22,230 bases of DNA from a virus (IMGVR_UViG_3300029567_000333:1-22230), one strand, 5' to 3'; shown: positions 1,101 through 17,664, counted from the stretch's first letter. Notes: generated from the sequence alone by a model not told the origin. Program-made: numbers and translations.

Positions 1101-1964
1101 ACGGCCCTCACAATATAATTAAAGGTGATGTTACGTGGACGATTTTCATTTGCTGTTGGAACAACTTTGGAAGCGTCAAAAGTGGCGTAAGCATTCGCCC
1201 CAGTTCCTGCTATTGGGTTTTGTTTATTCGATGACGATGGCCCAAGAGAAAAAACTCCCGAAGCGTAAGTCAGGAGGCCATCGGCATAAACACCAACATT
1301 ACCAGTAATGTTTCGAATAGCATCTCCTTGCGATGAAAGCAGAGTTCGCCCNNNNNNNNNNNNNNNNNNNNCGTTCATCATCCCAGCCACGAATAAACTC
1401 ACCACGTAAATCAGGCAATTTATTTGTCGGGTAAACTTTTGCCAGTTCAGGGTATTCTTCAGCAGAAAAAGCTGCACCATTGCATTTCAGCCAGCCTGTT
1501 GGAGGAGTGGCTGAAGGCCACGGAACAGGCACCCCAACCGGTAATGCAGAGCCTTCCCCCAAACCAAGGTATGAAAGAACATCTTTCCACCCGGCACCAT
1601 TGCTGTTTGGATCAGATAGATTTCCTTCTGTTGTGTTAATAAATATTCTTTCCCCATCGTCCGAGATGAGCATCGCCCCTGACGGATATCCAGAAATCTC
1701 CGAAGCAAATTCAGAATCAAAAGTATTCAGCGCCCCGGTGCTCGACCATCTCCCCAGAGCAGAAAGTTCGTATAAAATTTGGTTCATATCCTGGCCTTTT
1801 GGCGGCAAACCGCCAGCAGATTTCAGGATCATTGTTATTGGAGGAAACCCCTGTTCATACGATGCTGAGTTATCACCTGCAGGGGTGGTTGGCAATATTG
1901 CCCCTCTCTGTCCATTAACTCCAAATGGCTTAGGTTGTTTTTTAGGTGAGTCAGAACGATTCAT
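1097..1964 (-). CDS. tail fibre protein with phage tail-collar domain; reading frame broken by an assembly gap
   Basis: N-terminal part (ORF 1299-1964) contains the tail-collar motif GWLKCNGAAFSAEEYPELAKVYPTNKLPDLRGEFIRGWDD. After the N-run the C-terminal part continues in another frame (ORF 1097-1480, ...GDAIRNITGNVGVYADG...) and ends 2 nt into the tfa start. The apparent frame change is an artefact of the gap. Confidence 0.8.
1352..1371. other. assembly gap (run of 20 N) inside the tail fibre gene
   Basis: Twenty consecutive n characters in the sequence. True length of the missing segment is unknown. Confidence 0.99.
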
Positions 1965-1966
1965 GC

Positions 1967-2605
1967 TTAATTCCTATAAAATGTGCCGTCATTAAATGGA
2001 TATGCATCTGTAGCAAAACCAAAGTATGGGCTTACAATTTGTTTGATATTTACCTGAACTCCACTTGGTACAGGAGTCACATCGTAATTTGTTAAAATCG
2101 ATTCTTCGTAGGGAGCAAGTGAGAACTCAAAATTTATACCAATGGTCATATCTCTGTAATTGACACAATATGCTCTGCCTCGTTGATAAAAAAGTATTTT
2201 AAGAAATTTATTTATATCAGGAATGGTTGCCACACTGATGTTAGCAAAAGCCTTGCAGAGTATTAATGTTCTGTAAGCGTCATCCCCGAGCCTGACATTT
2301 GTTGTTTCCTGCACGCCACCATAAAAAGGAGAATCATTAAATGGTGAAGGATAATCAGTGCCTCCATCGTCAGCCTCACTAAACCCAAATGAGTCACTGT
2401 CAATTGAAGCGACAATGTATCTGCTTATACCTACTATTTTCCCCCACATATCAAGGCCAAAAGATTCACACGTTGTCAAATCCCATACCTTTTTGATGAA
2501 TTCATCTGTGAAGTCATCGAGGCTTACCGCCTGATTAAAAGTGTCAATGATAGATAATAATTTTTTGCTTGCCGAGTATTGGGTAAGAATTGTGTCTTCC
2601 CACAT
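1967..2605 (-). CDS. putative baseplate / tail-fibre attachment protein
   Basis: 212-aa ORF between the baseplate J-like gene and the tail fibre gene, where Mu-like and P2-like tail modules carry a baseplate protein. Call is positional only. Confidence 0.5.
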   Translation of the reverse strand: MWEDTILTQYSASKKLLSIIDTFNQAVSLDDFTDEFIKKVWDLTTCESFGLDMWGKIVGISRYIVASIDSDSFGFSEADDGGTDYPSPFNDSPFYGGVQETTNVRLGDDAYRTLILCKAFANISVATIPDINKFLKILFYQRGRAYCVNYRDMTIGINFEFSLAPYEESILTNYDVTPVPSGVQVNIKQIVSPYFGFATDAYPFNDGTFYRN

Positions 2606-2615
2606 ACCGCTCCCC

Positions 2616-2870
2616 CTACGATAATGTAACAGTGATATCTGATTCCTGAATGGTTGGAACCTGGTCTATGCCCATAGTCACAGCAGGTCCGTATAGTGAA
2701 CCATCTATGGAAACTTCAAGAGACAAAATTCCAACTGTATCAGGAGATATTGAAATAACAGGGGCATAGTATTTACCAGCATTTATCGTCGAACCAATTC
2801 GTGACTTTCCAATACCCTCATACCCTCCATTGAACACAGTGACAATCATTTCCTTGTTTAGTAATATCAC
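2616..2870 (-). CDS. small hypothetical ORF overlapping the 3' end of the J-like gene
   Basis: 84-codon frame that overlaps the upstream gene by 53 nt. No well-spaced Shine-Dalgarno: AAGGAA abuts the internal ATG and the GTG start has none. A CCCCC run sits at the frame junction. Could be a separate small gene or a frameshifted tail of the J-like gene. Confidence 0.3.
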   Translation of the reverse strand: MILLNKEMIVTVFNGGYEGIGKSRIGSTINAGKYYAPVISISPDTVGILSLEVSIDGSLYGPAVTMGIDQVPTIQESDITVTLS

Positions 2871-3840
2871 TTGGGGGATTTAGTGAAGCATCGACATTTA
2901 CCTTAAAGTAAACCCGCGTAGGTGATGCCTTTTGCCATTGCATTACATAAGATGGATATGGCGGCATGTAATTAACGTTATCGTAAACAGTGAACGTTGT
3001 ATTACCATTCATATTGGCGCCGGGGTTATAAGTATTGAATATTGACTCGGCAACATCCGTATCAGCCCCGCCATAAACACAAATATAAACAGAATGCGCA
3101 AGAATCGGGAAATTCGTTGTTCCTTTATTTACTGTTTCTGCAGTTCTGTTTGACCATACGTAAGCATCAAGCACACCATCAGTCGCAAGTAACGCTGCTA
3201 ATGTAGATGCGTCCTGATTTCGACTGTTTCTGGCAACTGATTGTCTCCGGCGAGTTTCAAAGGCGATACGTGATTCAACATCAACACCAACGACTCCAGG
3301 GCTAATATTATTTACAGCATCCCACCCGGAAACGGCTCGATAAATCTGGTTCAGTGAACCGGCGGCACACGGAATCGGCCCGGTTGTTGTGTTGACAAAC
3401 TGCACATCAACAGAGCCTGATGAGGGTATTACAGCATTATCAATTGACTGATATATATACCCGCTCGTATCCACAGCGGTACTCCCTGCTGGTATTGTTG
3501 TTCCAACCTGACCAATGCATGTTGCTGTAACAACTGTCCCCTGAGCAGCGATCCGCTCCATAAAGTAAATCCGACCAATCCCGTCCTGGAATCTGCCAGT
3601 TGAGAAGTCAGGGTTAATTTGATTAAACAAACAAAGAAGTTTGTCGTATTCCTGAGCAATAATTTCAGTGTCAGACTGTGCGATCTGCCCTTGCGGTGAA
3701 CTCAGTGATTGACTAGCACCACCGCCAAGAGCCGTTGACATGTCTGTAAGTCTTCCCGCCAGCACATCCGCTATGTCGGGAACTGAAAGACCGTTTTCAG
3801 TGATGGTTACATCAGGAACAGCCGTATTTAATATCGTCAT
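2818..3840 (-). CDS. baseplate J-like protein
   Basis: 340 aa. Follows a W-like small protein and precedes the fibre genes. Start overlaps the upstream stop (ATGA). Assigned from size and gene order. Confidence 0.55.
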   Translation of the reverse strand: MTILNTAVPDVTITENGLSVPDIADVLAGRLTDMSTALGGGASQSLSSPQGQIAQSDTEIIAQEYDKLLCLFNQINPDFSTGRFQDGIGRIYFMERIAAQGTVVTATCIGQVGTTIPAGSTAVDTSGYIYQSIDNAVIPSSGSVDVQFVNTTTGPIPCAAGSLNQIYRAVSGWDAVNNISPGVVGVDVESRIAFETRRRQSVARNSRNQDASTLAALLATDGVLDAYVWSNRTAETVNKGTTNFPILAHSVYICVYGGADTDVAESIFNTYNPGANMNGNTTFTVYDNVNYMPPYPSYVMQWQKASPTRVYFKVNVDASLNPPSDITKQGNDCHCVQWRV

Positions 3841-4196
3841 AAGGTGGCCTGTGCAATATTACCATTGATATCTGTAACGCGGATTGTGCCGCGAGTTGTG
3901 CGTGTATTCTTGTCAAAGAAAACTGATGCCAGAGCATCCTCAACGACGGGTAATTTGAGTGCTTCAGCCTGCATTTTCTGAGCAATAAAACCAGGAGATG
4001 GTCGCCTGCCAAGAACTTCTGCCTTCCATGGGATCCCAAGTGTATTGTCGTAATAACACTCTCCTGAAAACACCAGGCACGCACTGGCGACATCCTGAGC
4101 AACAGAATATGATTCTTCTGCGATCGCCAGATTGCCATTTCCGTCAAGCGTCAAGTCCCACGTAGAAGTGTCCAGTTGCATAGTTCTGTATGTCAT
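3837..4196 (-). CDS. small baseplate protein (gpW/gp25-like by position)
   Basis: 119 aa, translationally coupled on both sides (ATGA overlaps). Sits between the spike-like and J-like genes. Confidence 0.45.
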   Translation of the reverse strand: MTYRTMQLDTSTWDLTLDGNGNLAIAEESYSVAQDVASACLVFSGECYYDNTLGIPWKAEVLGRRPSPGFIAQKMQAEALKLPVVEDALASVFFDKNTRTTRGTIRVTDINGNIAQATL

Positions 4197-4885
4197 GTCG
4201 GTTTATCCGTTGCATTGGAATTTATTGTTGACCCACCACTTTGTACTCCTGAAACAGAATGTTTGTGATTGTTATAGTTGTCCCTTAAATTTTTAACAGT
4301 AGATGACTGTGAACTTGCGTTATCCTGAATATCACCGCTAACTTTAAGTAAAGGAGTATTCATGTTGACCCCATTAGGAGCATCAATATTTAACGATGAA
4401 CATTTAATATTTAGTGGGTTAGGTGTGGTTATGTTTATTGCACCATCAGCAAATTCAATGAATTGAGTAGGTGCAATATTTAATACCCCACCAAGATAAA
4501 TTGCATCAGATTTACTGTGTCGCCTTTTGCTTCCAGGTACTGATTCTTTACGATTTTTTCTTACCAGTGATGTGTCTTTGTCGCAGACAGCAATCAGACC
4601 AATATCACCTGCCACAGGGTCCATAATTACAGCACTGTTGCCTCTCTGCAACCGCCATACAGGAATATCATATAAAACCGAGTTAGAAATCATTTTTCCT
4701 GTACGGTCTGTTCTGGTTAGTAAAGGAAGAGCGTCAACAACTAAATCCGGTGCTTCCCCCCTGACTTCATGAACTATCGCTAACTCAATGAAGAAATATC
4801 CAGACATCATCATCTCAAAAATATATTCCTGAGATTGAGCCTCACTTACCTGAGCAGTCGTTGGAGTAAATAGTTGCTTATCCAT
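4193..4885 (-). CDS. baseplate spike / gpV-like protein (start moved to the internal ATG at 4885)
   Basis: The ORF-track N-terminus overlaps the upstream gene by 100 nt. The internal ATG (MDKQLF...) overlaps the upstream stop by only 8 nt. Contains VWRLQRGNSAVIMDPVAGDIGLIAV, reminiscent of spike proteins. Confidence 0.45.
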   Translation of the reverse strand: MDKQLFTPTTAQVSEAQSQEYIFEMMMSGYFFIELAIVHEVRGEAPDLVVDALPLLTRTDRTGKMISNSVLYDIPVWRLQRGNSAVIMDPVAGDIGLIAVCDKDTSLVRKNRKESVPGSKRRHSKSDAIYLGGVLNIAPTQFIEFADGAINITTPNPLNIKCSSLNIDAPNGVNMNTPLLKVSGDIQDNASSQSSTVKNLRDNYNNHKHSVSGVQSGGSTINSNATDKPT

Positions 4886-5759
4886 TATTCTGTTGCGCCT
4901 CTGCTCTTTGTTCCGCTGTTCTGGCGGCAATACATATTGAGTGCCATGAACCATTTGGCATCCATGATGATAATTCATGCCGAACGGAGGTTAACTTATA
5001 CCTTCCGCTTGCATGTGGTAGTTCTGTTTTGATATCCACATATCTTCCAATGCAAAGGAGAGATGAATATTGCGACTGAAACATCAGTCCCCCATTTGAA
5101 AATACAGGATATCCAACAAGTCCGTATTCTCTGGATATAAACGGAATTACATCGTCTCTGTTTTTTTCTGAAGGCCAGAACTCTACTTTTGTCGGTGGCG
5201 TGGCTGACATCGCAAGTCCATAATCTGAACAGACCCTATAAAGTTGTTCAAAAACACTTCCTTCAAAATGCGGACTTCCTGATGTTGTCATCCCTTTTAC
5301 ATTATTAAACACAGCCTCATAACCTGCACTTGCACAAATGGATGAGATGACATCTTCAACACTTTGCGCACCCTGCGCTGTAAACGGACTTGCTGGCATG
5401 TTCTGTAAATCAACATTAGAAGAGGCTGTTATCATCAAACTGCTTTCAGGAGCAGAATTCATGTTTGCTATTGATGAAAGCATCGTGCCGGAGAAAACAA
5501 GAGAATCATCAGCAAATACCTCAACATTTAACTTCTGACCTTCCCCAACAATACCATCAGCCTTCCCTGATATATCAGCAAGTCTTTCAATTCCTAAGCC
5601 GTAAAGAGATATATCAGCCTGAGCACCTCCCCGACCGGTAACAAAGTTCAGGGATACTGTTGACTTAACATTTCTGATGGAGATTTTATTGTTTCCATTT
5701 TTATCAAATGCTGATGATTCATTCGTGAAGTCAAACCGAAGACTGTGATTTTTATACAA
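4878..5759 (-). CDS. baseplate protein, probably initiating at TTG 5759
   Basis: No in-frame ATG or GTG follows the upstream stop until codon about 128. A TTG at 5759-5757 has a GAGGAA Shine-Dalgarno 8 nt upstream and overlaps the upstream TAA. The sequence before it in this frame (MDLRETLFSLITMGSRTRNGKAW...) does not look protein-like. Alternative ATG starts at 5831 or 5867 cannot be excluded. Confidence 0.4.
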   Translation of the reverse strand: MYKNHSLRFDFTNESSAFDKNGNNKISIRNVKSTVSLNFVTGRGGAQADISLYGLGIERLADISGKADGIVGEGQKLNVEVFADDSLVFSGTMLSSIANMNSAPESSLMITASSNVDLQNMPASPFTAQGAQSVEDVISSICASAGYEAVFNNVKGMTTSGSPHFEGSVFEQLYRVCSDYGLAMSATPPTKVEFWPSEKNRDDVIPFISREYGLVGYPVFSNGGLMFQSQYSSLLCIGRYVDIKTELPHASGRYKLTSVRHELSSWMPNGSWHSICIAARTAEQRAEAQQNNG

Positions 5760-6054
5760 GCTCGTTTTCCTCAATGTAATACAGCAAGTAACGGCCACCC
5801 AAGCCTTCCCATTGCGGGTCCGACTCCCCATCGTTATCAATGAAAATAAGGTCTCCCTTAAATCCAAGGTAGGAATATCTTACCATCTTATTCCCATACA
5901 GGCATGGAACGCCCTGCATAATTGGGACTTCATTAACAGTTAAATCCATGTACATAAAACTCTGTCGCTGAACAAGTTTTATATTACATTGCTGACCAGC
6001 CAGACTTACCGAAATGGACTGAGATTTGCTGGGAAGAACAGATACTGTAATCAT
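5752..6054 (-). CDS. small tail/baseplate protein
   Basis: 100 aa. Start overlaps the upstream stop (ATGA). Sits in the distal tail module. Confidence 0.5.
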   Translation of the reverse strand: MITVSVLPSKSQSISVSLAGQQCNIKLVQRQSFMYMDLTVNEVPIMQGVPCLYGNKMVRYSYLGFKGDLIFIDNDGESDPQWEGLGGRYLLYYIEENELV

Positions 6055-6866
6055 GTGCTCGCCTTAACTATATTTTTTGCAATATCTGCCGCTTTTTTTG
6101 TTGCGCTGTTTGTAACTTCGAGTATTGGTTTGGACACCGTATCAAGAGCACTCTGAAATTCAGTCTTGATTGTGTCGGAGATTTTTCCAGTGATGTCGCC
6201 AACAGATGACTTCAGTGATGACCATGATTTACTTAGCTCATCGACAGTAGATTCCCTGGCTCCGCCATTGGTTATTTGCGGATCAACTCCTACATCTCCC
6301 TGTGACTTATTGTTATCCGTTGGCTTCTGTTCTGACTGAGATCCAGAGAGGATAACCTCCATTTGCTGAATGACCTCCTGAAAATCAAGATAAACCGTCA
6401 GAAGAGTCACCCCTTTTTGAGAGTTAACTTCGTAATAGTGGTCAACAAGGTCGAAACTCTCCAGAGTTTCCTTTGGCGTTTCAATATCGTATGTTTTTGC
6501 AGAGGACAGCATCGTTTTGATTGTGTTCAGCGTGCTGTTCTGGCTTGTGAATGTGAGATCGAAAATATTCGGGATATTGCCGGAAAAACCAGTAAGACCA
6601 TTTACGATGATTGCGCATCTTACTCTGGCTGGTTCTTTAACTTTGTTGATGGACTGGTATTTCCCTTTCTCCACCGGAGCATTTGTTATTTGCGCCCTTC
6701 CGCTTGGCTGTACGGATGCCATACCACTGAACTCAAGAGCAACCTCGCCAGTTTCCCTGTCACGAATCACATACTGGGGATGCAGAACGCTGTCGATGAT
6801 CGAAAGCGGAGAGCCACCACCGATAGCATTGAATATGTCTGCTGTGTTTAAATCGATTATGCTCAT
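6051..6866 (-). CDS. tail protein, first gene after the accessory island
   Basis: 271 aa. GGAGAG Shine-Dalgarno before the ATG at 6866. Begins 12 nt 3' of a terminator hairpin. Confidence 0.5.
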   Translation of the reverse strand: MSIIDLNTADIFNAIGGGSPLSIIDSVLHPQYVIRDRETGEVALEFSGMASVQPSGRAQITNAPVEKGKYQSINKVKEPARVRCAIIVNGLTGFSGNIPNIFDLTFTSQNSTLNTIKTMLSSAKTYDIETPKETLESFDLVDHYYEVNSQKGVTLLTVYLDFQEVIQQMEVILSGSQSEQKPTDNNKSQGDVGVDPQITNGGARESTVDELSKSWSSLKSSVGDITGKISDTIKTEFQSALDTVSKPILEVTNSATKKAADIAKNIVKAST

Positions 6867-6884
6867 CTACTCTCCATTAAACAA

Positions 6885-6906
6885 AAACCCAGTCGAAGCT
6901 GGGTTT
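6885..6906 (-). terminator. rho-independent terminator, minus strand
   Basis: AAACCCAG / CTGGGTTT stem with a 6-nt loop. On the minus strand it is followed by TTTTTGTTT. Lies just 3' of the 73-aa gene. Confidence 0.6.
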
Positions 6907-6916
6907 AGTGAATTGG

Positions 6917-7138
6917 CTAGTTATCAAAAAGTCCGTACGTTTCTTCTTCTTCAGGAGTAAGGGGAAGAATCTCAATTCTATCTATAGATACCTTTTCAAT
7001 GTACCCATGAGGTCTGCTTAAAATTAAAGCTCTCTCATGCCACAAAACACCAAGAATGTGATATCTCCCAGCATCGCCTTTTACCCTGGCTCTTCCTTTG
7101 ATTCTTGGCGGCATAATGCCATATTTTTTCTTTGCCAT
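6917..7138 (-). CDS. hypothetical small basic protein (73 aa)
   Basis: Start ATG shares a base with the upstream TAA (TAATG), suggesting translational coupling. No family recognised. Confidence 0.45.
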   Translation of the reverse strand: MAKKKYGIMPPRIKGRARVKGDAGRYHILGVLWHERALILSRPHGYIEKVSIDRIEILPLTPEEEETYGLFDN

Positions 7139-7866
7139 TATGCAACATTACTCCCATGAACCAGGTGTTGTAGTGCTTTAACACCTTCCGCATTGTAGCG
7201 GAATGCTTCCACCTGTTTGCTGGAATGCGCAGATTTATCCAGGAAGAACTTCCCGTACTGCTCAGTTTTGAGGTTGTTTGCGTTAGCAATGCGACCAATC
7301 TTGTTGGCCGTTACTCCAAGCTGCTCTGCAACCTCCCCTGCTGAGTAGTAATGCTCTTCTATTGCTGGAAGAGGTATTGCATTAAAACCAACGATCGGGT
7401 TGATTATGCTTGCTGCCGCAGTCTGCTTTGCTTCCGGCGCAAGATTTGGCATCAAATCGAACAGATTGGTAACAGCTTCAACCGTCATTTTCAATGTTCG
7501 CGCCTGGCGATACTCAACAAGTCCACTAGACGATTTACCGCTTTTAATGTGCGCTTCTTGCATACTTTCAAGTTGGTCTACAAGTGAGCGGCGAACAGCT
7601 TTAGATTCACGAGCAGCCACTCGAAGGGCTTGCTTAATTGACATAACAACTTTTTCAGAAGTTGTCTTGTTTGATTTTTGAACTACGAAAATTTCGTAGT
7701 GCTCACCTTCAAGTTCATCCTTAATGCGTGCAATAAAGTCGTTATTGCGGACTTCTTTTTCCCCGCACTGTCTACGAGCATGATTGACCATCTCTAACAG
7801 GTACTGGCTATCAATGGTTTTATCCGTGACAACGGATCCGATGTTTGCTACATTCTTAAAAGTCAT
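7138..7866 (-). CDS. putative phage regulatory protein (possibly antirepressor-like)
   Basis: 242 aa from the internal ATG at 7866, which has an AAGGA Shine-Dalgarno 7 nt upstream. The longer ORF-track N-terminus would run through a terminator hairpin. Only a weak resemblance to the N-terminal region of phage Rha/antirepressor-type regulators (TIDSQYLLEMVNHARRQCGEKEVRNNDFIARIKDEL); the call rests mainly on position directly downstream of ant. Confidence 0.4.
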   Translation of the reverse strand: MTFKNVANIGSVVTDKTIDSQYLLEMVNHARRQCGEKEVRNNDFIARIKDELEGEHYEIFVVQKSNKTTSEKVVMSIKQALRVAARESKAVRRSLVDQLESMQEAHIKSGKSSSGLVEYRQARTLKMTVEAVTNLFDLMPNLAPEAKQTAAASIINPIVGFNAIPLPAIEEHYYSAGEVAEQLGVTANKIGRIANANNLKTEQYGKFFLDKSAHSSKQVEAFRYNAEGVKALQHLVHGSNVA

Positions 7867-7904
7867 TAGGCATTCCTTATGTGGTAGTAAGGGTGTGACA
7901 TAGG

Positions 7905-7933
7905 CCGCCAGCTGCACACTGGCGGTTTTTTTT
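7905..7933 (+). terminator. rho-independent terminator oriented on the plus strand
   Basis: CCGCCAG-ctgcaca-CTGGCGG (7-bp stem, 7-nt loop) followed by eight T (7926-7933). On the minus strand the hairpin is followed by CCUAUG, not a U-run. Sits between ant and the next minus-strand gene. Confidence 0.6.
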
Positions 7934-7950
7934 CACCACCAGATGCGTCA

Positions 7951-8967
7951 TTAATACAGATGAACAGAAGGCGGTAATTCTTTATTCTTAAGCCTTATCC
8001 ATGCAGAAAGATTTGTTGGTCCGTCTGGCTCATTGATATCAACATCTCGTGTGTGGTTGATTAAAACGTCTCTCGCCGTTCCGATAACATACGAGAACTC
8101 ATGACCGTAGTCGTAGCATCTGCCGGAATAGTTCGATTGAATTTGTTTTAATGCCGGATACAGTTCGCGGAATAATGCCTGTGAGCGGTTGGCATAATCC
8201 CATAACCATACAAGGCTGTTTGCTTCTTTTGCGGAAAGCTCGTTGGTGCTCTTCTCTTGTTTGCTAATGAACTCACCTTCAAGTGGAACTCGAGCTGCAA
8301 GTGACAGTGCTTCGGTAAACTGCTCCTCACTGATTTCTTTGTACGAACATCCAAAATGGGATTTCAGTGACGACCACATGGTGATCATCGCCTTCGCCTG
8401 TTTTTCTTTTGGCAGAGACTGACCGCGACTCATGACAAGTTGTTTAATGGCTTCCTGCTGTTCAGTGGTGATTTTGCCCGGCAACGCCTTTTTAGCTTTG
8501 CGCGGGTTAACCACATGGCCTTTAGTCCAGTAGTCATGCAGCACAGTAAAGCATTCTTCCTGGTACTGAATCAGTTTATCGCGGATGTCAGCACGAACTT
8601 TCTCAGGGTTGATGCTGAACAGCCATCCATTTAACTTCTTCAAAGGAAGGCAGAGTAGCTTACGAAGCTTCCCATCAGCAGCAACCATATTCATATGAAT
8701 ACAGTTGAACTTATCTAGTTGTTTCATAAGTTTTTGTTGCTGAGTACCCCAGCTCATTCCGAGGTTTTCAACGATTGGCTTCATCGCAACATATGCAACT
8801 CCTGCAGCCATGGCGGTGATAATTTGCTGACCGTTGAAGGGTACGTAAGAGGTGTTCACTGCTTCTAAAATTGCTATACTATTCATATCAGTTTTCTCGT
8901 AGTTAACTGGTAATTTAGAAGCCTCAATGGTTGCAGCCATTGGGGCTTCGCTGTTTTTAGCGACCAT
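7951..8967 (-). CDS. ant: antirepressor (Ant-like)
   Basis: N-terminal region ([37 protein letters not shown]...[16 protein letters not shown]) has the shape of phage antirepressor N-terminal domains. Lies directly 3' of an Arc-like gene and divergent from an Mnt-like gene, as in P22 immI. ATG at 8967 has a GAGGTGG Shine-Dalgarno and overlaps the arc-like stop by 11 nt. A start at 8886 is also possible. Confidence 0.65.
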
Positions 8968-9130
8968 TCGCCACCTCTTCCCTAACACCTTTTGCCAGCA
9001 AACGAACAATTGCAGAGTTCAGAGATATACAGTCCATTTCCGCCAGGCGGCGAAGGTCTTCATTCAGCCGTGATGGAAGGCGAAGGTTGAGTTTGATATT
9101 TTTGCGCTCAGTGAAAAGTGTATCTTGCAT
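8957..9130 (-). CDS. arc: Arc-like ribbon-helix-helix repressor (57 aa, missed by the ORF track)
   Basis: Translation [57 protein letters not shown] has the beta-strand plus two helices layout of the Arc/MetJ family. AAGGAG Shine-Dalgarno 9 nt before the ATG at 9130. Confidence 0.7.
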
Positions 9131-9236
9131 TATCTAATCTCCTTTATTTGGTGCCAAAGTGACGCCATGAAGGCCATAATGCCACCATTGAAATCGTATG
9201 GCAATATGGCACCATGGTTTTTTTGAGAGATTTGCA
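9131..9236. promoter_or_regulatory. divergent promoter/operator region between the arc-ant and mnt-like genes
   Basis: Minus strand: TTGCCA (9204-9199), 17-nt spacer, CATTAT (9181-9176). Plus strand: CATAAT at 9175-9180, so the two -10 hexamers overlap. Dense GCCAT/ATGGC and GGTGCCA/TGGCACC inverted motifs are candidate operator half-sites. Confidence 0.45.
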
Positions 9237-9557
9237 ATGGCCGAAAAACAAGTAAAAGACTACGACAAGTTCAACCTCCGTTTTCCTGACGGAATGCGAG
9301 ATGCTATAGCTGAACGAGCTAAACGTAACGGCAGATCAATGAACTCAGAGATTGTGCAGATACTGGAAGATGCCTTGAATGCAGAAAATACTCTTGGGGA
9401 AATAGCAGACAAAATCAACAGCGTCTCGGTTCCGCTAAATGTTGATGCGCTAGTTCAACTTCAAGCCCAGGTTATCGCCATGCAAAAAGAAATACAGGAA
9501 AAGTTCAGAGAGCAAAACGAAAAGTTAAGAGAACTGCTAAACAAAAAACCCACCTGA
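9237..9557 (+). CDS. mnt: Mnt-like ribbon-helix-helix repressor
   Basis: FNLRFPDGMRDAIAERAKRNGRSMNSEIVQILEDAL closely matches the Mnt/Arc DNA-binding region as I recall it (FNFRMP...EANGRSMNSELLQIVQDAL in P22 Mnt). C-terminal half is heptad-like and coiled-coil-prone. Start taken at the ATG at 9237 (GAGAGA Shine-Dalgarno); the longer N-terminus from 9198 has none. Confidence 0.85.
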   Translation: MAEKQVKDYDKFNLRFPDGMRDAIAERAKRNGRSMNSEIVQILEDALNAENTLGEIADKINSVSVPLNVDALVQLQAQVIAMQKEIQEKFREQNEKLRELLNKKPT

Positions 9558-9570
9558 CGGTGGGTTTTTC
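9543..9570. terminator. bidirectional rho-independent terminator between convergent genes
   Basis: A-run (9543-9548), CCCACC-tgac-GGTGGG stem-loop, then TTTTT (9565-9569). The mnt-like stop TGA lies in the loop, and the convergent minus-strand gene ends at 9571. Confidence 0.75.
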
Positions 9571-10563
9571 TTATTCTTTATCTTTTAAGTCGATGGTTCT
9601 TTGTCCAATAACCTTTTCATCTATGTATTTCTCATACTCTTCTCGAGTATCAGAAACCATTGCAATACCAGTAACCTTACCTATTTGGGTTCTAAGAGCT
9701 TTAACTCCAACCTCTGATAAAAACTGGTGTATTTTATCGTTTTTGCTGCCTTTCTCTTCTTTTGACGTTTTTGCTAAATTAAATACCTTTCCTTCACTTC
9801 TGGCTAATGGGTAGTAAATGTGATCTATCGTAAGATATTTAAACGCCCACGGTCGCCCTCTAACTGGTTTGTCTATACCATACAGACGATACCAATGCTC
9901 ATAAAGTTCAGGGGTGAACTCTCTTTCATACTCACGAGCCTCTTCAGCAACATATCGCTTATATGCTTGAATTACTTCTTCTTTTGTTCTGTCATACCCT
10001 GCCAAAGCATAAACAAGCCCCTGAATTCCCGCCTTGGCTGATGCATCAATAATTATCCTGGCTTGCTTAGCAATCCCTTCCTGACTAGAAAGCAACTTAC
10101 CTTCAGCTTTAGCGTTAGAGATTGCTCGACATAAATCAATTAAGATTGTTACATCGTAGCCATGTATTACAGGGTTAGCTGGTGTGTTCGTGCCCACCTG
10201 TTTGTATTGAAAAATAAGAGGATTTTCAAGTTTTGCCCTTAATTCATGCCCGATATACTGAGAAATAGTTTTCCCCTGAATAAACTTTGGCAACCTGCTG
10301 CCACCTTCGCCAAGACCAATCGCTTCTCCCATGCCTCTCTGGCTAATAACGGCAGTTTTGTTATCATCATTTAACACATAGCACTCAACATCAATCCCGA
10401 ATTCATGCTGGAACGATCCCTTATGCGTAGCAATTAATGGTTTATCCTTCCATCTTGCAGCCGCTGCTTTCTTTGCTATTTCAGAACGCTGCTCTTTAGT
10501 CAGCGACTTTGCGCGAGCGATTCCGCCCTTAGCTTTCCCTTCACCACTTTTCTTTTCAGTCAT
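9571..10563 (-). CDS. hypothetical protein, possibly P63C-domain-like; function unknown
   Basis: 330 aa from the ATG at 10563, which has an AAGGTG Shine-Dalgarno 8 nt upstream. Basic N-terminus (KKSGEGKAKGGIARAKSLTKEQRSEIAKKAAAARWK). The gene is visibly more AT-rich than the structural genes. The P63C resemblance is from memory and unverified. Confidence 0.45.
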   Translation of the reverse strand: MTEKKSGEGKAKGGIARAKSLTKEQRSEIAKKAAAARWKDKPLIATHKGSFQHEFGIDVECYVLNDDNKTAVISQRGMGEAIGLGEGGSRLPKFIQGKTISQYIGHELRAKLENPLIFQYKQVGTNTPANPVIHGYDVTILIDLCRAISNAKAEGKLLSSQEGIAKQARIIIDASAKAGIQGLVYALAGYDRTKEEVIQAYKRYVAEEAREYEREFTPELYEHWYRLYGIDKPVRGRPWAFKYLTIDHIYYPLARSEGKVFNLAKTSKEEKGSKNDKIHQFLSEVGVKALRTQIGKVTGIAMVSDTREEYEKYIDEKVIGQRTIDLKDKE

Positions 10564-10564
10564 A

Positions 10565-10654
10565 ATGCAAGCACCTTTGCTGTGATATATGCTTGCATTA
10601 TATGCACTGTACCCACATACAAGCAAGCATAAAACAAAAGCAAAATGCTTGCAT
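10565..10654. promoter_or_regulatory. array of four 10-bp near-palindromes ATGC(W)(W)GCAT with a putative promoter
   Basis: ATGCAAGCAc at 10565-10574, ATGCTTGCAT at 10589-10598, aaGCAAGCAT at 10621-10630, ATGCTTGCAT at 10645-10654, giving two units of inverted half-sites 24 bp apart. On the minus strand a perfect TATAAT (10602-10597) with a weak TTGCTT -35 lies among them, and the repeats overlap the -35, the transcription start and the Shine-Dalgarno. Confidence 0.55.
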
Positions 10655-10771
10655 TGCAACCGCACTACTCCAACTACACAGTATCATCTGGTATCCTGCG
10701 TAAAACCGAGTGTTGCGTGCTTTTGCTTAAGTTAACGGATACAAACATAGGAAACGTTACAAGGGGAAAGA

Positions 10772-11230
10772 ATGAAATCCAGATTTTTCACAATAGCAAT
10801 ATTTTCTTCCGTTCTTCTATCACTCGCAGCTTATGCTGCATCCGACAAAGATAAGGAAAAAATGATGTCTTTAATAAAAGATGCTTCTCCTTATGTTGCA
10901 GGCATGGGCAAAAGCATTGATGAAGTTTGTCAGGATATGGCTAACGACATGGTAAAAAAGTATGGAAATCAACTTAGTGCTATTGGCAAGTCACCGTCAG
11001 ATATACGAGATTCATCGTATGGTATATGCTTTGACGCTGCATCTTCAGCATCATTATCGCAATCCATAGAAGAAGTAAGCATGTGGAAAAATGCAGCAAT
11101 GCAAAACATTAACGCCACATTCCGAGGCGAGAATGAGCAATCTCCCGCGCGAAAATTTCTCGTTGAGACAATTGATCACTCTGAGAAAATGGCAAAAACA
11201 ATTGCATTCATGCGGGAAATTAGTCAATAG
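10772..11230 (+). CDS. small secreted (periplasmic) protein of unknown function
   Basis: N-terminal signal peptide (MKSR, hydrophobic core FFTIAIFSSVLLSLAA, AYA-AS cleavage motif) with no lipobox cysteine. Two Cys in the mature part. AAGGGGA Shine-Dalgarno. AT-rich. Converges on the tape measure gene with an 8-nt gap. Confidence 0.65.
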   Translation: MKSRFFTIAIFSSVLLSLAAYAASDKDKEKMMSLIKDASPYVAGMGKSIDEVCQDMANDMVKKYGNQLSAIGKSPSDIRDSSYGICFDAASSASLSQSIEEVSMWKNAAMQNINATFRGENEQSPARKFLVETIDHSEKMAKTIAFMREISQ

Positions 11231-11238
11231 CAAATCTG

Positions 11239-13014
11239 CTAAGGCACTGCACTTGAAAATGCCTGATTTACTGATGATCTGCGATTCAACTCCTTAAATC
11301 CTTCGGTTAGTTTTGAGGATTGATCCGTTTTGGCAATTACCTTTACCTCTCCTATGTGCTGGCTGTTGTAATTGTTAACAACGCTTTGGGTATAGGATTG
11401 ATTTGCAGATCCATTAGCCAATCTTTGCTGAGTTTGGTAGTAAGCGGCATTGCTATTTTTCGTTGGGTTACCATAATCAAGACCCCGCTTCCAATCTGGA
11501 TAACCTTCATGCCTAGCCATATAGGCGCTAAGTTTTGCCATAACCTCTGGATCTGAGAGGTTTAGCTTATCATTGGCACCAACGCCCATAGACTTAGAAA
11601 CCTGGTCAATATACGCCTTTGTGTTGTTTTCTGAGGATGGTGCCCACTTGCTTATTATTCCTTGCAACGTATCAAGCTTATCTCTTTTGTAGTATAGAGT
11701 CAGTTGATTCCTGGCGGCCTCCCAACCCTCTTCTGGGTCGAAGTATTGAGCAAATCCGTCTTTGTCTCTTCTTCTGTTTCCAGTAGCTTTAAGATTTAAT
11801 GGGTTATTGTTTCTGTCAGGCCTGTTGACACCATTTTTGTTAGGAGGAATCTCTTTATTTGGATCGTCATAATCCAGCCCAATGAGCCTTTCAAGCCAAT
11901 GCTGCTGAAATGCGAATGGCCGCATCTCATCAGGAACATCTTTATACTGGTCTTGTACCATCTGCCCAAAAATACCAACAGCACCGATTAATCCCAGCTT
12001 GCTTCCTAACCCCTTGCCGCTAAGAAGAGCCATGGCAGCAAGAATGCCCAATGCGTTTCCAGCGCCACCAACGGCTTTAACAAAACCATCAATACCTGTA
12101 CTCAGGTTCCTGAAGAACCCAACAATGTCACCCTTGTTGTTTTTCAGCCACTCTAAAAACTCCTGTTCAGCTTTAAGCACTTCAGGGCCAAATGTAGCCA
12201 TTAATTCTTGTTTAACCTGAGCAAATTGCGAGTCAAGGGCTTTAGTCGTAGCAAGAATGTTGCGCTGTGCTTCTTCCTGCTCTTTGGTCATCTGCCATCG
12301 TTTTTCTTCCTCAGATACCATCTGCACAGCTTTTCCGCTTTTAATATCCCCGGCAAGATTAGGGTCATAACCAAAAGCAGAAAGCACTTGCATTAACTGT
12401 TTCTCGTTATGGTTCTTCCCATATTTCTGAAATTCCGCCAGAGCATCTTCTGATTTACCTCCAAGCTTACTAATATCAATGCCTGTTCTCGCTCCAGTTG
12501 TTAGTAAATTCTGAGCCTCCGGTGTAAGTCCGCCGAAAATTGTTGGGTCTTCTATATTGGCAAGCGCCATCCTGGCGCTCATCTGTGCCCCAAGGAACGC
12601 GCCGCCGTTCTGACCAATTCGGGAGAATCCATACTGAGTACCAAGAACGTTACTGGCGCTTGTTCCAAGCATTCTCCCCATATTACTGGCTCTTACAATT
12701 GACTCCGAAGTACTTTCAAATGCACGATGAATGCCAATGGCTACGGCAGTCAACACACCGCCAACAGCCACAAAGCGTGTCGAAAGCCCCAAAAAACCAT
12801 TAAATGAAGCAGTCAACCCTTTCATTGCAACAGCAGCTTTGTCGGTCTCCTTAGCCGTTTTGGACATCGAGGAGGTTGTTGACCTTTCTATCGCAGATGA
12901 AGATCTCTCTATTTCGTTTTTAAGGTCTTGTGCTTCCTGCTTTACTTTCCGTTTTCCATTCAGGAATTCATCGGCCTTAATTGTGACCTTGTAGGCCAAC
13001 TCATTGATAATCAT
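11239..13014 (-). CDS. tail tape measure protein
   Basis: 591 aa, directly downstream of the chaperone pair. Gly/Ala-rich hydrophobic segments (AVGGVLTAVAIGI, GGAGNALGILAAMALLSGKGLGSKLGLIGAVGIFG) and a charged coiled-coil-like stretch. C-terminal region (NNNPLNLKATG...YFDPEEGWEAARNQL...) looks like a separate globular domain of unknown identity. Confidence 0.7.
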   Translation of the reverse strand: MIINELAYKVTIKADEFLNGKRKVKQEAQDLKNEIERSSSAIERSTTSSMSKTAKETDKAAVAMKGLTASFNGFLGLSTRFVAVGGVLTAVAIGIHRAFESTSESIVRASNMGRMLGTSASNVLGTQYGFSRIGQNGGAFLGAQMSARMALANIEDPTIFGGLTPEAQNLLTTGARTGIDISKLGGKSEDALAEFQKYGKNHNEKQLMQVLSAFGYDPNLAGDIKSGKAVQMVSEEEKRWQMTKEQEEAQRNILATTKALDSQFAQVKQELMATFGPEVLKAEQEFLEWLKNNKGDIVGFFRNLSTGIDGFVKAVGGAGNALGILAAMALLSGKGLGSKLGLIGAVGIFGQMVQDQYKDVPDEMRPFAFQQHWLERLIGLDYDDPNKEIPPNKNGVNRPDRNNNPLNLKATGNRRRDKDGFAQYFDPEEGWEAARNQLTLYYKRDKLDTLQGIISKWAPSSENNTKAYIDQVSKSMGVGANDKLNLSDPEVMAKLSAYMARHEGYPDWKRGLDYGNPTKNSNAAYYQTQQRLANGSANQSYTQSVVNNYNSQHIGEVKVIAKTDQSSKLTEGFKELNRRSSVNQAFSSAVP

Positions 13015-13229
13015 CGCTGCTCCTGATGTTTATTCCAGACCCGCTTGTTAAATGATTCCACCGAGATAATTTCCAGAAGGTTATACATATCACGAACAGA
13101 TAACCTTTCCTGCAAATCGGTATAAGTGGCTTTTCCTGAACAGATAATGGCGTTCATTGATGGTGTGACGTTTACGGGGCTAACGAGTTTTGCCGGAAGA
13201 GTCTCCTCCTCCATGAACGGGTACTTCAC
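13011..13229 (-). CDS. tail assembly chaperone, T-like extension ORF (probably expressed as a frameshift fusion)
   Basis: 72-codon ORF in the -1 frame relative to the upstream chaperone gene. No convincing Shine-Dalgarno of its own. The -1 frame is open from the slippery site into this ORF. Confidence 0.55.
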   Translation of the reverse strand: MKYPFMEEETLPAKLVSPVNVTPSMNAIICSGKATYTDLQERLSVRDMYNLLEIISVESFNKRVWNKHQEQR

Positions 13230-13633
13230 TCTCCGGCGATCGTTAAAAAATCAAAATTGACTTTAAATACCTTATCCATTACCTGACGAATGGTTGATAC
13301 CTCTTCAAAGTCGACAGGCTTCACGGTTCGCACCTGTCTGCTGCCTTCGTGTGTAATCACAATTTGCACAGTTGACATCAGGCGATCACGAAGTTTTCTG
13401 GCGACTTCCGGCGATGCAGCAGAAATAACATTCAGACCAAGGGTGGCAAGGCCAGCACACCCCATGGCAATCACATCAGCAGGAATACCAGAGAATCCCG
13501 ATTCCCCCATGGAGCGGAATAAATCCTGTGCCAGTTCGTCGGCATCCCATGCCGACATCTCTGTGATAATGAACTCCTTCCCATTGTCGCGATTATCGTC
13601 TTCCACGATAAAGGAGATTTCTTTACGTGCCAT
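13226..13633 (-). CDS. tail assembly chaperone (lambda G-like)
   Basis: 135 aa, between the tube and tape measure genes, with a slippery heptamer near its 3' end. Confidence 0.6.
   Translation of the reverse strand: MARKEISFIVEDDNRDNGKEFIITEMSAWDADELAQDLFRSMGESGFSGIPADVIAMGCAGLATLGLNVISAASPEVARKLRDRLMSTVQIVITHEGSRQVRTVKPVDFEEVSTIRQVMDKVFKVNFDFLTIAGE
13244..13250 (-). other. candidate -1 programmed ribosomal frameshift site (T TTT TTA)
   Basis: On the minus strand the heptamer TTTTTTA lies in the zero frame as gaT TTT TTA, six codons before the stop of the 135-aa gene. A -1 slip reads AAC GAT CGC CGG AGA GTG... straight into the 72-aa ORF. Confidence 0.55.
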
Positions 13634-14067
13634 CAGATAGTGCTCCGTGTTACAGACTCAAAGTGAAATACTGCCGGGCGTGGTTGCAGTACGCGCCGAC
13701 CCGGAGGGGTTGGAGTCCATGTATAAAGAACCCCGTTCACAAAATTCCACTTCGCGCCGAGAGCCGGAACTGTAAGCACCGCATTACACTGAAACGCTGA
13801 AATTGCGGTTCTCTCCGCTGCATACCAGTCATCAATCAGCGAGCCAGCATTGGATGTGGGCATCAGGTTGATGGTGAACTCTGTCGGGTTAAAGATAAAA
13901 CCAGCATGGTATTTACCGTCCGCTGACATCATGTCTTCTTTGTTCTGTAACGCACCAGTTTCAAACATGTTATCAGCTGCGTAGTCGTCAACATCAAAAC
14001 CGCCAGGGTAGTAAGCGGGTACGACGATTCGCAGCTTACTGTTTGCCGAGGTAATATCGATAGGCAT
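13633..14067 (-). CDS. tail tube protein
   Basis: 144 aa, immediately 3' of the sheath-sized gene and 5' of the chaperone pair. Positional call. Confidence 0.6.
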   Translation of the reverse strand: MPIDITSANSKLRIVVPAYYPGGFDVDDYAADNMFETGALQNKEDMMSADGKYHAGFIFNPTEFTINLMPTSNAGSLIDDWYAAERTAISAFQCNAVLTVPALGAKWNFVNGVLYTWTPTPPGRRVLQPRPAVFHFESVTRSTI

Positions 14068-14078
14068 GATTTATTCCC

Positions 14079-15569
14079 TTATAAAATCGCGGTTGAGGAC
14101 ATCGTGATGGACTGAATAAGTTGCCCATCGACATAATAAAAAATGACACCTTTCAGGTCGCGCTCAATGCGTGCAGAGCCTGACTGTGTCGGGATGTACA
14201 GGAACCAGCCCTGTGAATACAGCGTCGATGAGATATCTTTTCCAACTGTGTTATTCACAATTCTGGTTTGCGCATTATCAAGTTTCACGCCGCGCTGAAT
14301 AGCCCCGAAATTGAGAGCCTGTTCAGCAACATCAATAACAGCAGCAGAAACTGCGCCGTATCCTGTCTCATTGAACGGGTAAGACTGGTTATTGGTGAAC
14401 AGGTTGGCAAAAGCACTAACCAGATTGGCATTAATCCATACCTGATTAATAAAACTGTCCAGCCATACAAACTTTCCAGTAATGGCACCATCAGATGCGT
14501 ACTGCGCCATTGTTTTGTTCAGGCTGTATGATCCGTAGAAGTTGTAACCGTTTGACTTCAGTGCCTGAGCGGTCGCCAGATCTCTGACGTTGGGTGCTAA
14601 CCCTGAAAATCCACGGAACTTGAACGAGATACGCCCATTGGTGCGTGCAAAATCCACGGATGCAGCATATGCCAGTGCTGTAACGCTATACAGGTATGTT
14701 CCGTACACCGGAAAAATGTTCTCGTAGCCATTTGCCACAACCACTTTCTGCACAAAGCAATTGGCATTATTTGCTACCGTTCCTGCTGAGGTGGTGTCGT
14801 GAACAACATATCCAAACCGGTTTTTACTGCTGCTTGCCCATGCGCACAATTCTGTTTTCTGGTCATCGGTCAGTTCGACCAGCGAGTTAAACAGGATCCA
14901 GTTCTGGTTGACGTTGATGATGTTGTTCATCGTGTCTGTCAGCGTTACCGCATCAGAACCCGGTGATACAATCGCTGCGGAATCCTGCGTCAGTAACAAC
15001 CCGGTAGCCAGAGCGCCAGCAGAAGCATAAGACACTTCACTCTCTGCGCCAGTAGTGGCAGAGCGAATGATGAATCGGTTAGCGATTGGCAACCATTCAA
15101 CCACCACCTTGCTTGCACCAATTCCAACCTGCAACTTGGACGCAATGTCACTAAAACTTGTGGCTGTGGACAAATCAATTGATGTGCTGGTAGTCGACTC
15201 ACCGTCAATGGAAAGGGTGATTGTTCCTGCTGGAATCGCTTTCAGTGTTGCCAGGGCAACACCTTTCAGGTTGCCGGACAGAAGATACCCAGCCACTGGT
15301 GAAGTAACAATACGATACATCAGCAGTTCACCAGGAATAACGGATGAGTTTTCGTAGCCGTTAAAATACTGTTGTGCGGCGAGGAATTCTTTCGATTCAC
15401 TCCCCATCAAAGCTGATACATCAGATGAGGAGTAATAAGATTGTACCGCGCCAACCGGGATAAGCTCGTTATCGGTCAACATCAGGCCGTTAGCATCAAC
15501 CGCAGAACCGGCAGGCGTAACGACATTGGGCGTGATATTAAAATCTACAGATAAAGGGATTGTGCTCAT
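14079..15569 (-). CDS. tail sheath protein
   Basis: 496 aa, upstream of the tube gene. Size and position match a contractile-tail sheath. Confidence 0.65.
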   Translation of the reverse strand: MSTIPLSVDFNITPNVVTPAGSAVDANGLMLTDNELIPVGAVQSYYSSSDVSALMGSESKEFLAAQQYFNGYENSSVIPGELLMYRIVTSPVAGYLLSGNLKGVALATLKAIPAGTITLSIDGESTTSTSIDLSTATSFSDIASKLQVGIGASKVVVEWLPIANRFIIRSATTGAESEVSYASAGALATGLLLTQDSAAIVSPGSDAVTLTDTMNNIINVNQNWILFNSLVELTDDQKTELCAWASSSKNRFGYVVHDTTSAGTVANNANCFVQKVVVANGYENIFPVYGTYLYSVTALAYAASVDFARTNGRISFKFRGFSGLAPNVRDLATAQALKSNGYNFYGSYSLNKTMAQYASDGAITGKFVWLDSFINQVWINANLVSAFANLFTNNQSYPFNETGYGAVSAAVIDVAEQALNFGAIQRGVKLDNAQTRIVNNTVGKDISSTLYSQGWFLYIPTQSGSARIERDLKGVIFYYVDGQLIQSITMSSTAIL

Positions 15570-16081
15570 GGGCGGTTATCCACCTGTTCAGTTGAAATTT
15601 CTGCTTTGTCGAAATAGTCCTGCTGGAACGACACGGTGATGTGTGCTTGCAGGGAAAGAGTTAACGTGTAACGCTCCTGCCACTGACTCTCGGCGTTGAT
15701 CATCGGCGCCTGAATGACAGGAGATGAGTAAAGCGGTGCAAGACGTGCATCAATAGCCTTGATGATGTCGTAGCCATATCCACTGGTGAATGTTGTTTCC
15801 AGTGCAATAGCTCTATCCCCAGCCCCCTGACCATAGATATCTACCTGAATATCAGCCTGGCGGACTTCCGTATATCCCATGGCGCTTGTGTCCGGAGAGC
15901 CGGTATCTTGCTTAAGCTCTCTCGTCGTGGATAGTCTGGTGAATCGCAAAGGGGTCAGGATGCAGAACTGATCCTTGGGCATTGGTACACGGTTAGCCTG
16001 AGCCTGCAGGCATTTACCAGCGATAGGTTCTATGTAGCCAGCAAGTACATCGATAATATTATCGACAGTGAAATCATTCAT
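15566..16081 (-). CDS. neck / tail-completion protein
   Basis: Start moved to the internal ATG at 16081, which overlaps the upstream stop (ATGA). Positional call. Confidence 0.4.
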   Translation of the reverse strand: MNDFTVDNIIDVLAGYIEPIAGKCLQAQANRVPMPKDQFCILTPLRFTRLSTTRELKQDTGSPDTSAMGYTEVRQADIQVDIYGQGAGDRAIALETTFTSGYGYDIIKAIDARLAPLYSSPVIQAPMINAESQWQERYTLTLSLQAHITVSFQQDYFDKAEISTEQVDNRP

Positions 16082-16449
16082 GGGCTTACCTGCAATACAG
16101 CAATCAGTCGGCACCATGAATCCCACAACTCTATTGGCTCAACAACAAGCCATTGTTCCCCGTTAATCACGAAGATATCTCCGCCCTGCTCCAGTTCTCG
16201 CTGCACACTGAAGTAATTACCATTGACGTAAATCACTTTTGCCAGCCCCTGAATATTCAGTCCATCGACGTGTTGCATGTCGCCGCGACTGATTGGCTGT
16301 AGTTGAATGGTAACGTGCTGGTCAGGGAGATAAGACGGAATCGGCTTGCGACCGGGGCCGATAGTTTCGCCTGCATACTTTTTCAGGATTGCCGGGATAT
16401 TAGGGTTAATGCTTGTGATCGCGTTATTGGCTATCTGTCTGAGATTCAA
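16078..16449 (-). CDS. head-tail joining protein
   Basis: 123 aa ORF in the neck module. Positional call. Confidence 0.4.
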   Translation of the reverse strand: MNLRQIANNAITSINPNIPAILKKYAGETIGPGRKPIPSYLPDQHVTIQLQPISRGDMQHVDGLNIQGLAKVIYVNGNYFSVQRELEQGGDIFVINGEQWLVVEPIELWDSWCRLIAVLQVSP

Positions 16450-17301: not shown

Positions 17302-17313
17302 TTGCTGCTCCCG

Positions 17314-17661: not shown

Positions 17662-17664
17662 GAA

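Follow-up and report, generated by a model that had tools for sequence, protein, structure and literature searches.

A P22-type immunity I region and its companion genes in a variable slot of the contractile-tail operon of a probable lambdoid Escherichia coli prophage

The late genes of a tailed phage fill most of the viral DNA stretch IMGVR_UViG_3300029567_000333:1-22230, whose whole length of 22,230 nucleotides we call the window, and they are interrupted at one place, between the tape measure gene and a baseplate-hub gene. Taking three points jointly, we consider it very likely that positions 7951-9570 within this interruption form a complete P22-type immunity I (immI) region, working by analogy with its counterpart in P22; that the interval as a whole is a variable cargo slot of the kind described in P22-like phages as the ant moron, placed after the DNA-delivery (tape measure) gene and before a conserved operon-internal terminator; and that the element carrying it is an E. 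coli lambdoid prophage, with a myovirus tail related to those of the Gofduovirus phages and of Pseudomonas phage E217. In the open reading frame (ORF) map of the window, the late genes run contiguously on the minus strand from 486 to 6866 and from 11239 to 22206 and are broken only between these blocks. The 6866-11239 interval of 4.4 kb, hereafter the island, holds seven genes on both strands, none of which matches a structural family, which confirms the non-structural insertion that an initial annotation of the window had placed between the tape measure and baseplate genes. The same annotation had found most of the content to be without a confident family, a view that does not hold: Ant, Arc, Mnt and sar make up the immI region, and a further protein of 242 amino acids (aa) falls in an antirepressor family.

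The immI core

The features of the core are as follows.
7951-8886, minus strand: ant gene (311 aa; Pfam P22_AR_N and P22_AR_C)
8887-8957, plus strand: sar-like small antisense RNA, spanning the arc-ant intercistronic region and the ant ribosome-binding site
8957-9130, minus strand: arc-like gene (57 aa; Pfam Arc), first gene of the ant operon
9131-9236, both strands: divergent, overlapping Pant-like and Pmnt-like promoter region, with promoter-like sites and repeated operator-like motifs
9237-9557, plus strand: mnt-like gene (106 aa; Pfam Arc), opposite to the late operon
9544-9569, both strands: bidirectional intrinsic terminator with a stem of 11-12 base pairs (bp), between the convergent mnt-like and P63C genes

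Ant scores 151 bits against P22_AR_N and 103 bits against P22_AR_C and shares 68% identity with P22 Ant over the entire length, from Met1 onwards; because the identity begins at Met1, the ant start is placed at 8886. Starts of all island genes were refined against homologues, and all seven ORFs are full length by this comparison. The Mnt-like protein is a ribbon-helix-helix protein (Pfam Arc, 72.7 bits) with an N-terminal DNA-binding domain 50% identical to that of P22 Mnt; its gene lies on the strand opposite arc, 106 bp away, and a homologue in a related prophage (L001) that is 97% identical is likewise annotated as a 106-aa protein. The gene directly upstream of ant encodes an Arc-like protein with 22.1 bits against Pfam Arc (cut-off 20.4) and 30% identity to P22 Arc, and its identification as Arc is weak but consistent.

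The predicted sar-like RNA would start from an extended -10 element, TGCTATACT, at 8872-8880 within ant. The Rfam sar model RF00262 matches end to end at 8886-8952 with 28.6 bits (E = 0.016; gathering score 43), and the region folds more stably than shuffled sequence (z = -6.6). Alignment with P22 shows the block TTCTAAAATTGCTATACTATTCAT to be the same in both; this block covers the complement of the ant start codon together with the extended -10 element and overlaps the Psar annotated in P22, and pairing in the sar terminator stem is kept via compensatory changes relative to P22. In the gap between arc and mnt, promoter-like sites at 9204-9176 (minus strand) and 9151-9180 (plus strand) use a common -10 region, and the motif ATGSCACCAT occurs twice in addition to inverted copies, in an arrangement resembling the annotated Pant, Pmnt, Oarc and Omnt of P22. 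The terminator at 9544-9569 has T-runs on both strands, with z = -4.5 and -5.9.

In P22 the annotated order is gene 16, sieA, orf59a, mnt, Pmnt/Pant together with Oarc and Omnt, arc, sar, ant, a terminator and gene 9. The window agrees in the immI genes, their order and their orientations, with mnt divergent from arc-ant and overlapping promoter-like sites in between; in the start of sar beside the ant start codon; in a terminator before the next structural gene; and in the location of the module inside the late operon after the DNA-delivery gene. It differs in its flanks, which are the tape measure gene in place of gene 16 and a baseplate hub in place of the tailspike gene 9. The operator sequences also differ, so that specificity is presumably different from that of P22, and Mnt has a C-terminal part unrelated to that of its P22 counterpart. 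Finally, the window has a second antirepressor gene and a 73-aa gene after ant, and a P63C gene between mnt and the sieA position, which P22 does not have. Lambdoid prophages, Stx-converting ones among them, carry immI modules that are 94-97% identical to the segment 7967-9564; the module is therefore exchanged among phages of different virion types.

With P22 as the guide for the regulatory interactions, for the target of Ant and for antiterminated read-through, the module may work as follows. In a lysogen, the Mnt-like repressor, made from the strand opposite to the late genes, would keep the ant promoter off. Upon infection, or once Mnt control is lost, the arc-ant operon would be transcribed, and Ant would bind and inactivate prophage repressors of the CI/C2 type, which would favor lytic growth and could induce resident lambdoid prophages. 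Arc would then repress the promoter and the sar antisense RNA would block ant translation, leaving Ant to appear only as a pulse. Late transcripts antiterminated by Q would read through the terminators at 9544-9569 and 6885-6906, so that the baseplate genes are expressed, and transcripts begun inside the island would end at its internal terminators. In P22 there is a precedent in read-through that affects tailspike levels (PMC2629481).

A second antirepressor gene and a candidate antisense RNA

Downstream of ant, the following features precede the baseplate genes.
6917-7138, minus strand: 73-aa gene (PHROG 4977)
7138-7866, minus strand: 242-aa gene (PHROG 1726 'anti-repressor')
7826-7936, plus strand: candidate second antisense RNA unit, with promoter 7826-7854, an RNA of ~75 nucleotides (nt) at 7861-7936, and terminator 7902-7928 followed by T8

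The 242-aa protein matches PHROG 1726 with E = 6e-100, and its C-terminal domain is joined to Rha-type N-terminal domains in other viral contigs. Such domain shuffling is typical of antirepressor-type proteins. The start of the 73-aa gene overlaps the stop codon of the 242-aa gene (TAATG), and the two genes are paired in E. coli prophage EC16 and in the P22-like phage JEP4; in JEP4 they follow a Rha-type antirepressor in the ant region. We infer the functions of both, the 242-aa protein presumably having an antirepressor-type role and the 73-aa protein that of its partner. PDB sequence and profile searches with the 242-aa protein, the P63C protein and Ant returned only designed repeat proteins, which we judged spurious. 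Within the 242-aa gene, 80 bp (7639-7718) are 77.5% identical to positions 16069-16148 of P22 (NC_002371), an intergenic segment between the ant terminator and gene 9, and P22 may retain a remnant of a second antirepressor gene.

The first codons of the 242-aa gene contain a promoter-like site reading in the opposite direction (GTGACA-17-TACATT with an upstream TG; -10 element TGCTACATT), and the 7902-7928 hairpin with its T8 run follows ~45 nt past it. The predicted ~75-nt RNA, with a fold z of -2.8, covers in antisense the start codon of the 242-aa gene and its ribosome-binding site, a design like that of sar. The hairpin has a T-run on the plus strand only and is preceded by an A-run on the minus strand; it is therefore not the terminator of the ant transcript.

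The exact terminator sequence was found in 75 IMG/VR viral contigs (L044-L118) by an exact-pattern scan, which fixes this sequence by construction, and the cassette is also present in L007, L008, L014 and L016; its terminator comes after the stop codon of the gene upstream. The sequences upstream of it fall into 44 distinct ones; the promoter consensus is complete in 36 of these, sampled exceptions retain TGCTA[AC]AGT, and the RNA body between promoter and terminator is strongly divergent. The short leader peptide in which the promoter is encoded (NVAN...VVT) occurs joined to N-terminal domains with no relation to one another, including the type found in the window, the Rha type and further types. 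Among sequenced phages, more divergent copies of the candidate RNA turned up in three records only. Such a pattern would be expected of a portable antisense-RNA cassette, although relatedness of the sequences and protein-coding constraint may also account for part of it, and the 242-aa gene is probably restrained by a sar-like antisense RNA of its own. Klebsiella phage KP12 (L008) has a Rha/KilA-type antirepressor module with the same antisense cassette at 6001-8391, elsewhere in its baseplate cluster, and the module is therefore not confined to the junction of tape measure and hub.

The slot between tape measure and baseplate hub

The interval is bounded by the following features.
11239-13014, minus strand: tape measure or lytic tail protein gene (591 aa; PHROG 873, 2013 and 2276), upstream flank
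6885-6906, minus strand: intrinsic terminator (z = -3.5), just before the hub ribosome-binding site
6051-6866, minus strand: Dit-like baseplate-hub gene (271 aa; Pfam Dit_like, PHROG 1830), downstream flank

The 271-aa product scores 22.5 bits against Pfam Dit_like, under the cut-off of 24.2, and a Pam3_gp18-type baseplate plug gene comes after its gene. Homologues of the tape measure gene at the same position in relatives are annotated as SLT-domain proteins or as hypothetical. Among near-identical prophages the C-terminus of this protein occurs in two variants, one of 591 aa without a Pfam hit and one of ~605 aa with an SLT domain, and the swap point falls at about residue 315-350.

The structural genes of the window are 95-97% identical to those of about twenty prophages in complete E. 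coli genomes, and no record of the phage collection matched them at the DNA level. Protein comparison places the window closest to two Edwardsiella phages of the genus Gofduovirus, Edno5 and GF-2, whose sheath proteins are 73-75% identical, and the Pfam labels of relatives (DUF3383/E217-type sheath, Baseplate_J) point to an E217-type contractile tail. The best-matching prophage, that of E. coli WS4437A-1, has a lambdoid early region, comprising an S24 repressor of CI type along with Cro, CII, a nin region, the antiterminator Q and lysis genes like those of lambda; GF-2 and Edno5 share this lambdoid plan and encode Q-like proteins. A contig labelled Chryseobacterium sp. 18061 (Bacteroidota; L019) holds an enterobacterial-type prophage whose hub protein is 76% identical to that of the window, which probably reflects contamination or mislabelling.

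Edno5 and GF-2 carry Arc, Ant and a Mnt-like gene in this slot as well, with the lytic tail protein on one side and the baseplate genes on the other, and an immI region (Ant, Mnt, Arc) has been noted in Edno5 (PMC6372524). Their slots are shorter (1.7-2.4 kb), lack the P63C, 152-aa and second antirepressor genes, and have small membrane proteins after the tape measure gene instead. With modules of this kind equally placed in these phages and in close E. coli relatives, the island is neither new nor recent. Its guanine-plus-cytosine (GC) content of 42.5% compares with 43.3% in the baseplate and fibre genes to its left and 47.8% in the genes to its right. An AT-richness of 9571-11230, described earlier as marked, stands insofar as 9571-11238 is the lowest stretch of its size (1668 bp) in the window at 40.2% GC, but it is not marked, since single baseplate genes are equally GC-poor (37.7-39.3%). 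A foreign origin argued from composition was rejected, the GC content of the island being barely distinctive.

The content of the slot varies widely. From tape measure stop to hub start it measures 1.7-5.0 kb across the E. coli relatives, with differing cargo, and 1.2-5.0 kb over E. coli, Yersinia, Citrobacter and the Edwardsiella phages GF-2 and Edno5. Cargo types in E. coli comprise a P63C gene and a secreted protein only, immI with or without the second antirepressor, DUF2513 or helix-turn-helix (HTH) genes, and a CI/LexA-like S24 repressor instead of Mnt accompanied by a Panacea-domain antitoxin pair. Relatives in Yersinia, Citrobacter and Enterobacter show further combinations with four antirepressor domain types. 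In EC16 (L004, 11696-13385), and also in A41 and E423, an HTH plus Peptidase_S24 repressor takes the place of Mnt, and the Panacea-domain gene and its 139-aa partner are a probable toxin-antitoxin pair. In more distant relatives, found via the hub protein at 41-75% identity, the tape measure and hub genes nearly or fully abut, the gap being -1 bp in Arsenophonus, 10 bp in Sodalis, 63 bp in Phaseolibacter, 71 bp in Izhakiella and 103-184 bp in Symbiopectobacterium. The initial annotation had taken the region for a mid-operon accessory insertion and had asked whether the tape measure gene adjoins the baseplate genes elsewhere; both ideas are borne out by the differing gene sets of relatives and by these five genera, with gaps of -1 to ~180 bp.

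A variable insert of this kind has a precedent in the ant moron, described in 2008 by Villafane, Casjens and colleagues for P22-like phages, where it separates gene 16 from the tailspike gene (PMC2629481). Ten types were distinguished in sixteen genomes, some phages having none, and their contents include immI, sieA and unknown genes (PMC2629481). As in those phages, the late operon of the window is interrupted at one point by a non-morphogenetic insert that is variable among relatives and missing from some, here ranging from -1 bp to 5.0 kb. Genes are also shared with the P22-like morons, namely P63C (vB_EcoP-611R6, ST104) and the 242-aa and 73-aa genes (JEP4). The ant moron was defined for podoviruses, whereas the insert in the window lies in a contractile-tail operon, whose host is not a P22-like phage. 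The concept of the ant moron and its immI content are already published; the contractile-tail structural context is new.

Decay of the slot is seen in some relatives and raises the question of whether the island is a decaying, inactive remnant in a cryptic prophage. In TW10590 (L002) the slot holds an ant fragment as a pseudogene (9782-10048) and lacks the 152-aa gene, though the upstream region of that gene is kept, and an IS3 element lies in the tail-fibre region (1680-2908); degraded ant genes are likewise present in the morons of HK620 and Scho1 (PMC2629481). For the window itself we regard this explanation as highly improbable: its seven ORFs are full length, the promoter and the terminator of sar are intact, as are the terminator that works in both directions and the region of divergent promoters, and the flanking structural genes are uninterrupted.

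The terminator ahead of the hub gene recurs in related loci. When folded sequence by sequence, after MAFFT and RNAalifold had misaligned the stems, all 18 selected relatives, including those with near-empty slots, showed a GC-rich hairpin with a T-run ending 12-16 nt before the hub start codon, and the cargo always lay upstream of it. There are 13 different stem sequences among the 18, so that structure, not sequence, is conserved. By this comparison it is a lineage-wide operon-internal element and not the island's own, which suggests an ancestral attenuator inside the tail operon. Three terminators had been credited to the island by the initial annotation: those at 6885-6906 and 9544-9569 are real, but the former is shared by the lineage, and the T-tract of the hairpin at 7902-7928 is on the opposite strand.

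Constancy of the terminator could also mean that the region is selected as a transcriptional attenuator, setting the amount of baseplate and fibre proteins against that of sheath, tube and tape measure, while the genes inside it would be passengers. Its occurrence in every one of the selected relatives, in so many stem sequences and in almost cargo-free slots, speaks for such selection. We nevertheless find this account doubtful as an explanation of the island, as a terminator alone would do and is present without cargo in L019, L022, L026 and L031; Sodalis and Phaseolibacter, the most distant relatives, in which the genes abut, are without it; and the cargo genes are intact and have their own promoters and operators. 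Attenuation is moreover compatible with an immI-bearing cargo slot and does not compete with it.

The P63C and envelope-protein genes beside the tape measure

The remaining part of the island, between the immI core and the tape measure gene, comprises the following.
9571-10563, minus strand: P63C-domain gene (330 aa)
10564-10771, strand not assigned: divergent control region of the P63C and 152-aa genes, with four ATGCWWGCAT-type palindromes and a TATAAT -10 element for P63C
10772-11230, plus strand: gene of a secreted helical protein (152 aa), running toward the tape measure stop

The P63C family gave 2766 hits, with 60-70% identity even in prophages of Burkholderia, Ralstonia and Azotobacter, and its members occur at several prophage positions, such as after a tape measure gene, among recombination genes or beside CI. 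They also occur in the ant regions of P22-like phages, at 54% identity in vB_EcoP-611R6 and 32% in ST104 (orf23), and in the former the upstream region of the gene is conserved to position 10706 of the window. Four of the seven ATGCWWGCAT-type sites in the window lie within 90 bp (10565-10654), where the palindromes overlap the TATAAT element and the start codon of P63C and two are exact 11-mers separated by 56 bp; the arrangement suggests that some protein tightly regulates P63C at the palindromes. We found no functional study of P63C in the literature, no relative in the PDB and no informative fold match. In WS4437A-1 (L043), a second P63C-domain gene (8357-9268) overlaps the end of the CI-type repressor gene, at the position of rexAB in lambda, which hints that P63C proteins can be expressed from a prophage.

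The 152-aa protein has a signal-peptide-like, cleavable-looking N-terminus, two invariant cysteines and a confident all-helical soluble model. Its family has 29 members, restricted to Enterobacterales and without a Pfam domain, and in each of the contexts looked at the gene either converges on the stop codon of the tape measure gene or overlaps it, at the position that sieA occupies in P22. Small envelope-targeted proteins of at least five unrelated families are found at this tape-measure-adjacent position: four signal-peptide families, the small membrane proteins of GF-2 and Edno5, a single-pass membrane protein in a P22-like phage, and SieA in P22; in a profile comparison, secreted families A and B matched only at the signal peptide. 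HK97 gp15 is cited as a superinfection-exclusion moron (PMC11364771). The window resembles P22 sieA and HK97 gp15 in having a gene for a small envelope-targeted protein beside the DNA-delivery gene, and P22 sieA shares the orientation opposite to the late genes. It differs in that the 152-aa protein is soluble, secreted and helical, whereas SieA is a multi-pass inner-membrane protein to which it has no sequence similarity. The most likely site of action of the 152-aa protein is the cell envelope, with a role in superinfection exclusion or lysogenic conversion that is supported, not proven.

Two layers may be superimposed on the cargo slot, a suggestion that we put forward tentatively. The first would be the antisense cassette of the 242-aa gene as a portable unit ('sar2'), consisting of the terminator, the 5' untranslated region and the first ~15 codons of the downstream gene, which encode the antisense promoter, and yielding an RNA of 70-81 nt; grafted onto several unrelated antirepressor N-terminal domains, it would give each tandem antirepressor its own antisense brake. 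The second would be a dedicated envelope-protein position by the tape measure gene, through which at least five unrelated secreted or membrane families would rotate; the 152-aa helical periplasmic family, and possibly P63C, would then be new factors of superinfection exclusion or defence, acting on the delivery of incoming DNA.

The initial annotation had expected immunity, exclusion and defence or anti-defence cargo at such a site. The immunity-type part of this expectation is met by immI, and a PADLOC search of the island returned no defence or anti-defence profile match. It could still be argued that the island is mainly a defence or anti-defence locus, in which the P63C, 152-aa and 73-aa genes form an anti-phage or counter-defence system and immI is incidental. 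Cargo of a defence-like kind does occur in the slot of relatives (the Panacea-domain antitoxin gene and partner of EC16, A41 and E423), P63C-type genes lie at prophage-expressed positions, either directly after a CI-type repressor (WS4437A-1) or beside a ParE/Phd toxin-antitoxin pair (Azotobacter), the P63C family is unusually conserved across genera, and envelope proteins recur beside the tape measure gene. In the window, matches of island proteins to PADLOC-DB 2.0 were only marginal (E 0.002-0.004, 14-15 bits), NCBIfam and PDB sequence searches gave no useful match, immI and the antirepressor-type genes occupy more than half of the island length, and the P63C gene is oriented with the late operon, not in the prophage-expressed direction. 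We therefore judge a mainly defensive island unlikely and retain the immI region with variable companions as our reading.

Several points weigh against that reading. The Arc assignment is weak, only just over the Pfam cut-off, and the sar score is below the Rfam gathering threshold. The operator-like motifs of the arc-mnt region are unlike the P22 operators and are known as clustered repeats only. Overlapping promoter-like sites at 9151-9204 fit the promoter part of the promoter/operator regions proposed in the initial annotation; motif counts across the whole window were not above shuffled expectation, and only local clustering stands out, in the same regions from which the motifs were derived. 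The primary repressor and the Q gene of this prophage lie outside the window, and the module is known from its sequence. For the 152-aa protein, BLASTP gave no similarity to P22 SieA and the fold search no informative match, and its putative envelope or exclusion role is argued from position and targeting signals. A more specific idea, that it is a periplasmic inhibitor co-evolving with the lytic domain of its own tape measure protein, was ruled out for lack of co-variation, because an identical protein (P0021) adjoins two different tape measure C-terminal types; the tape measure type of the window is also paired with an unrelated secreted family.

The comparison with P22-like and other lambdoid phages shows that the P22 secondary-immunity module and its companions move as a unit among lambdoid phages with podovirus, siphovirus and myovirus tails, landing after the gene for the DNA-delivery protein in each case. 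This would aid the annotation of a common type of E. coli prophage, whose slot genes are mostly 'hypothetical' in RefSeq. The candidate second antisense RNA, the 152-aa periplasmic family and the widespread P63C family offer experimental leads, and antirepressor modules such as this one may let one phage induce resident prophages, Stx prophages included.

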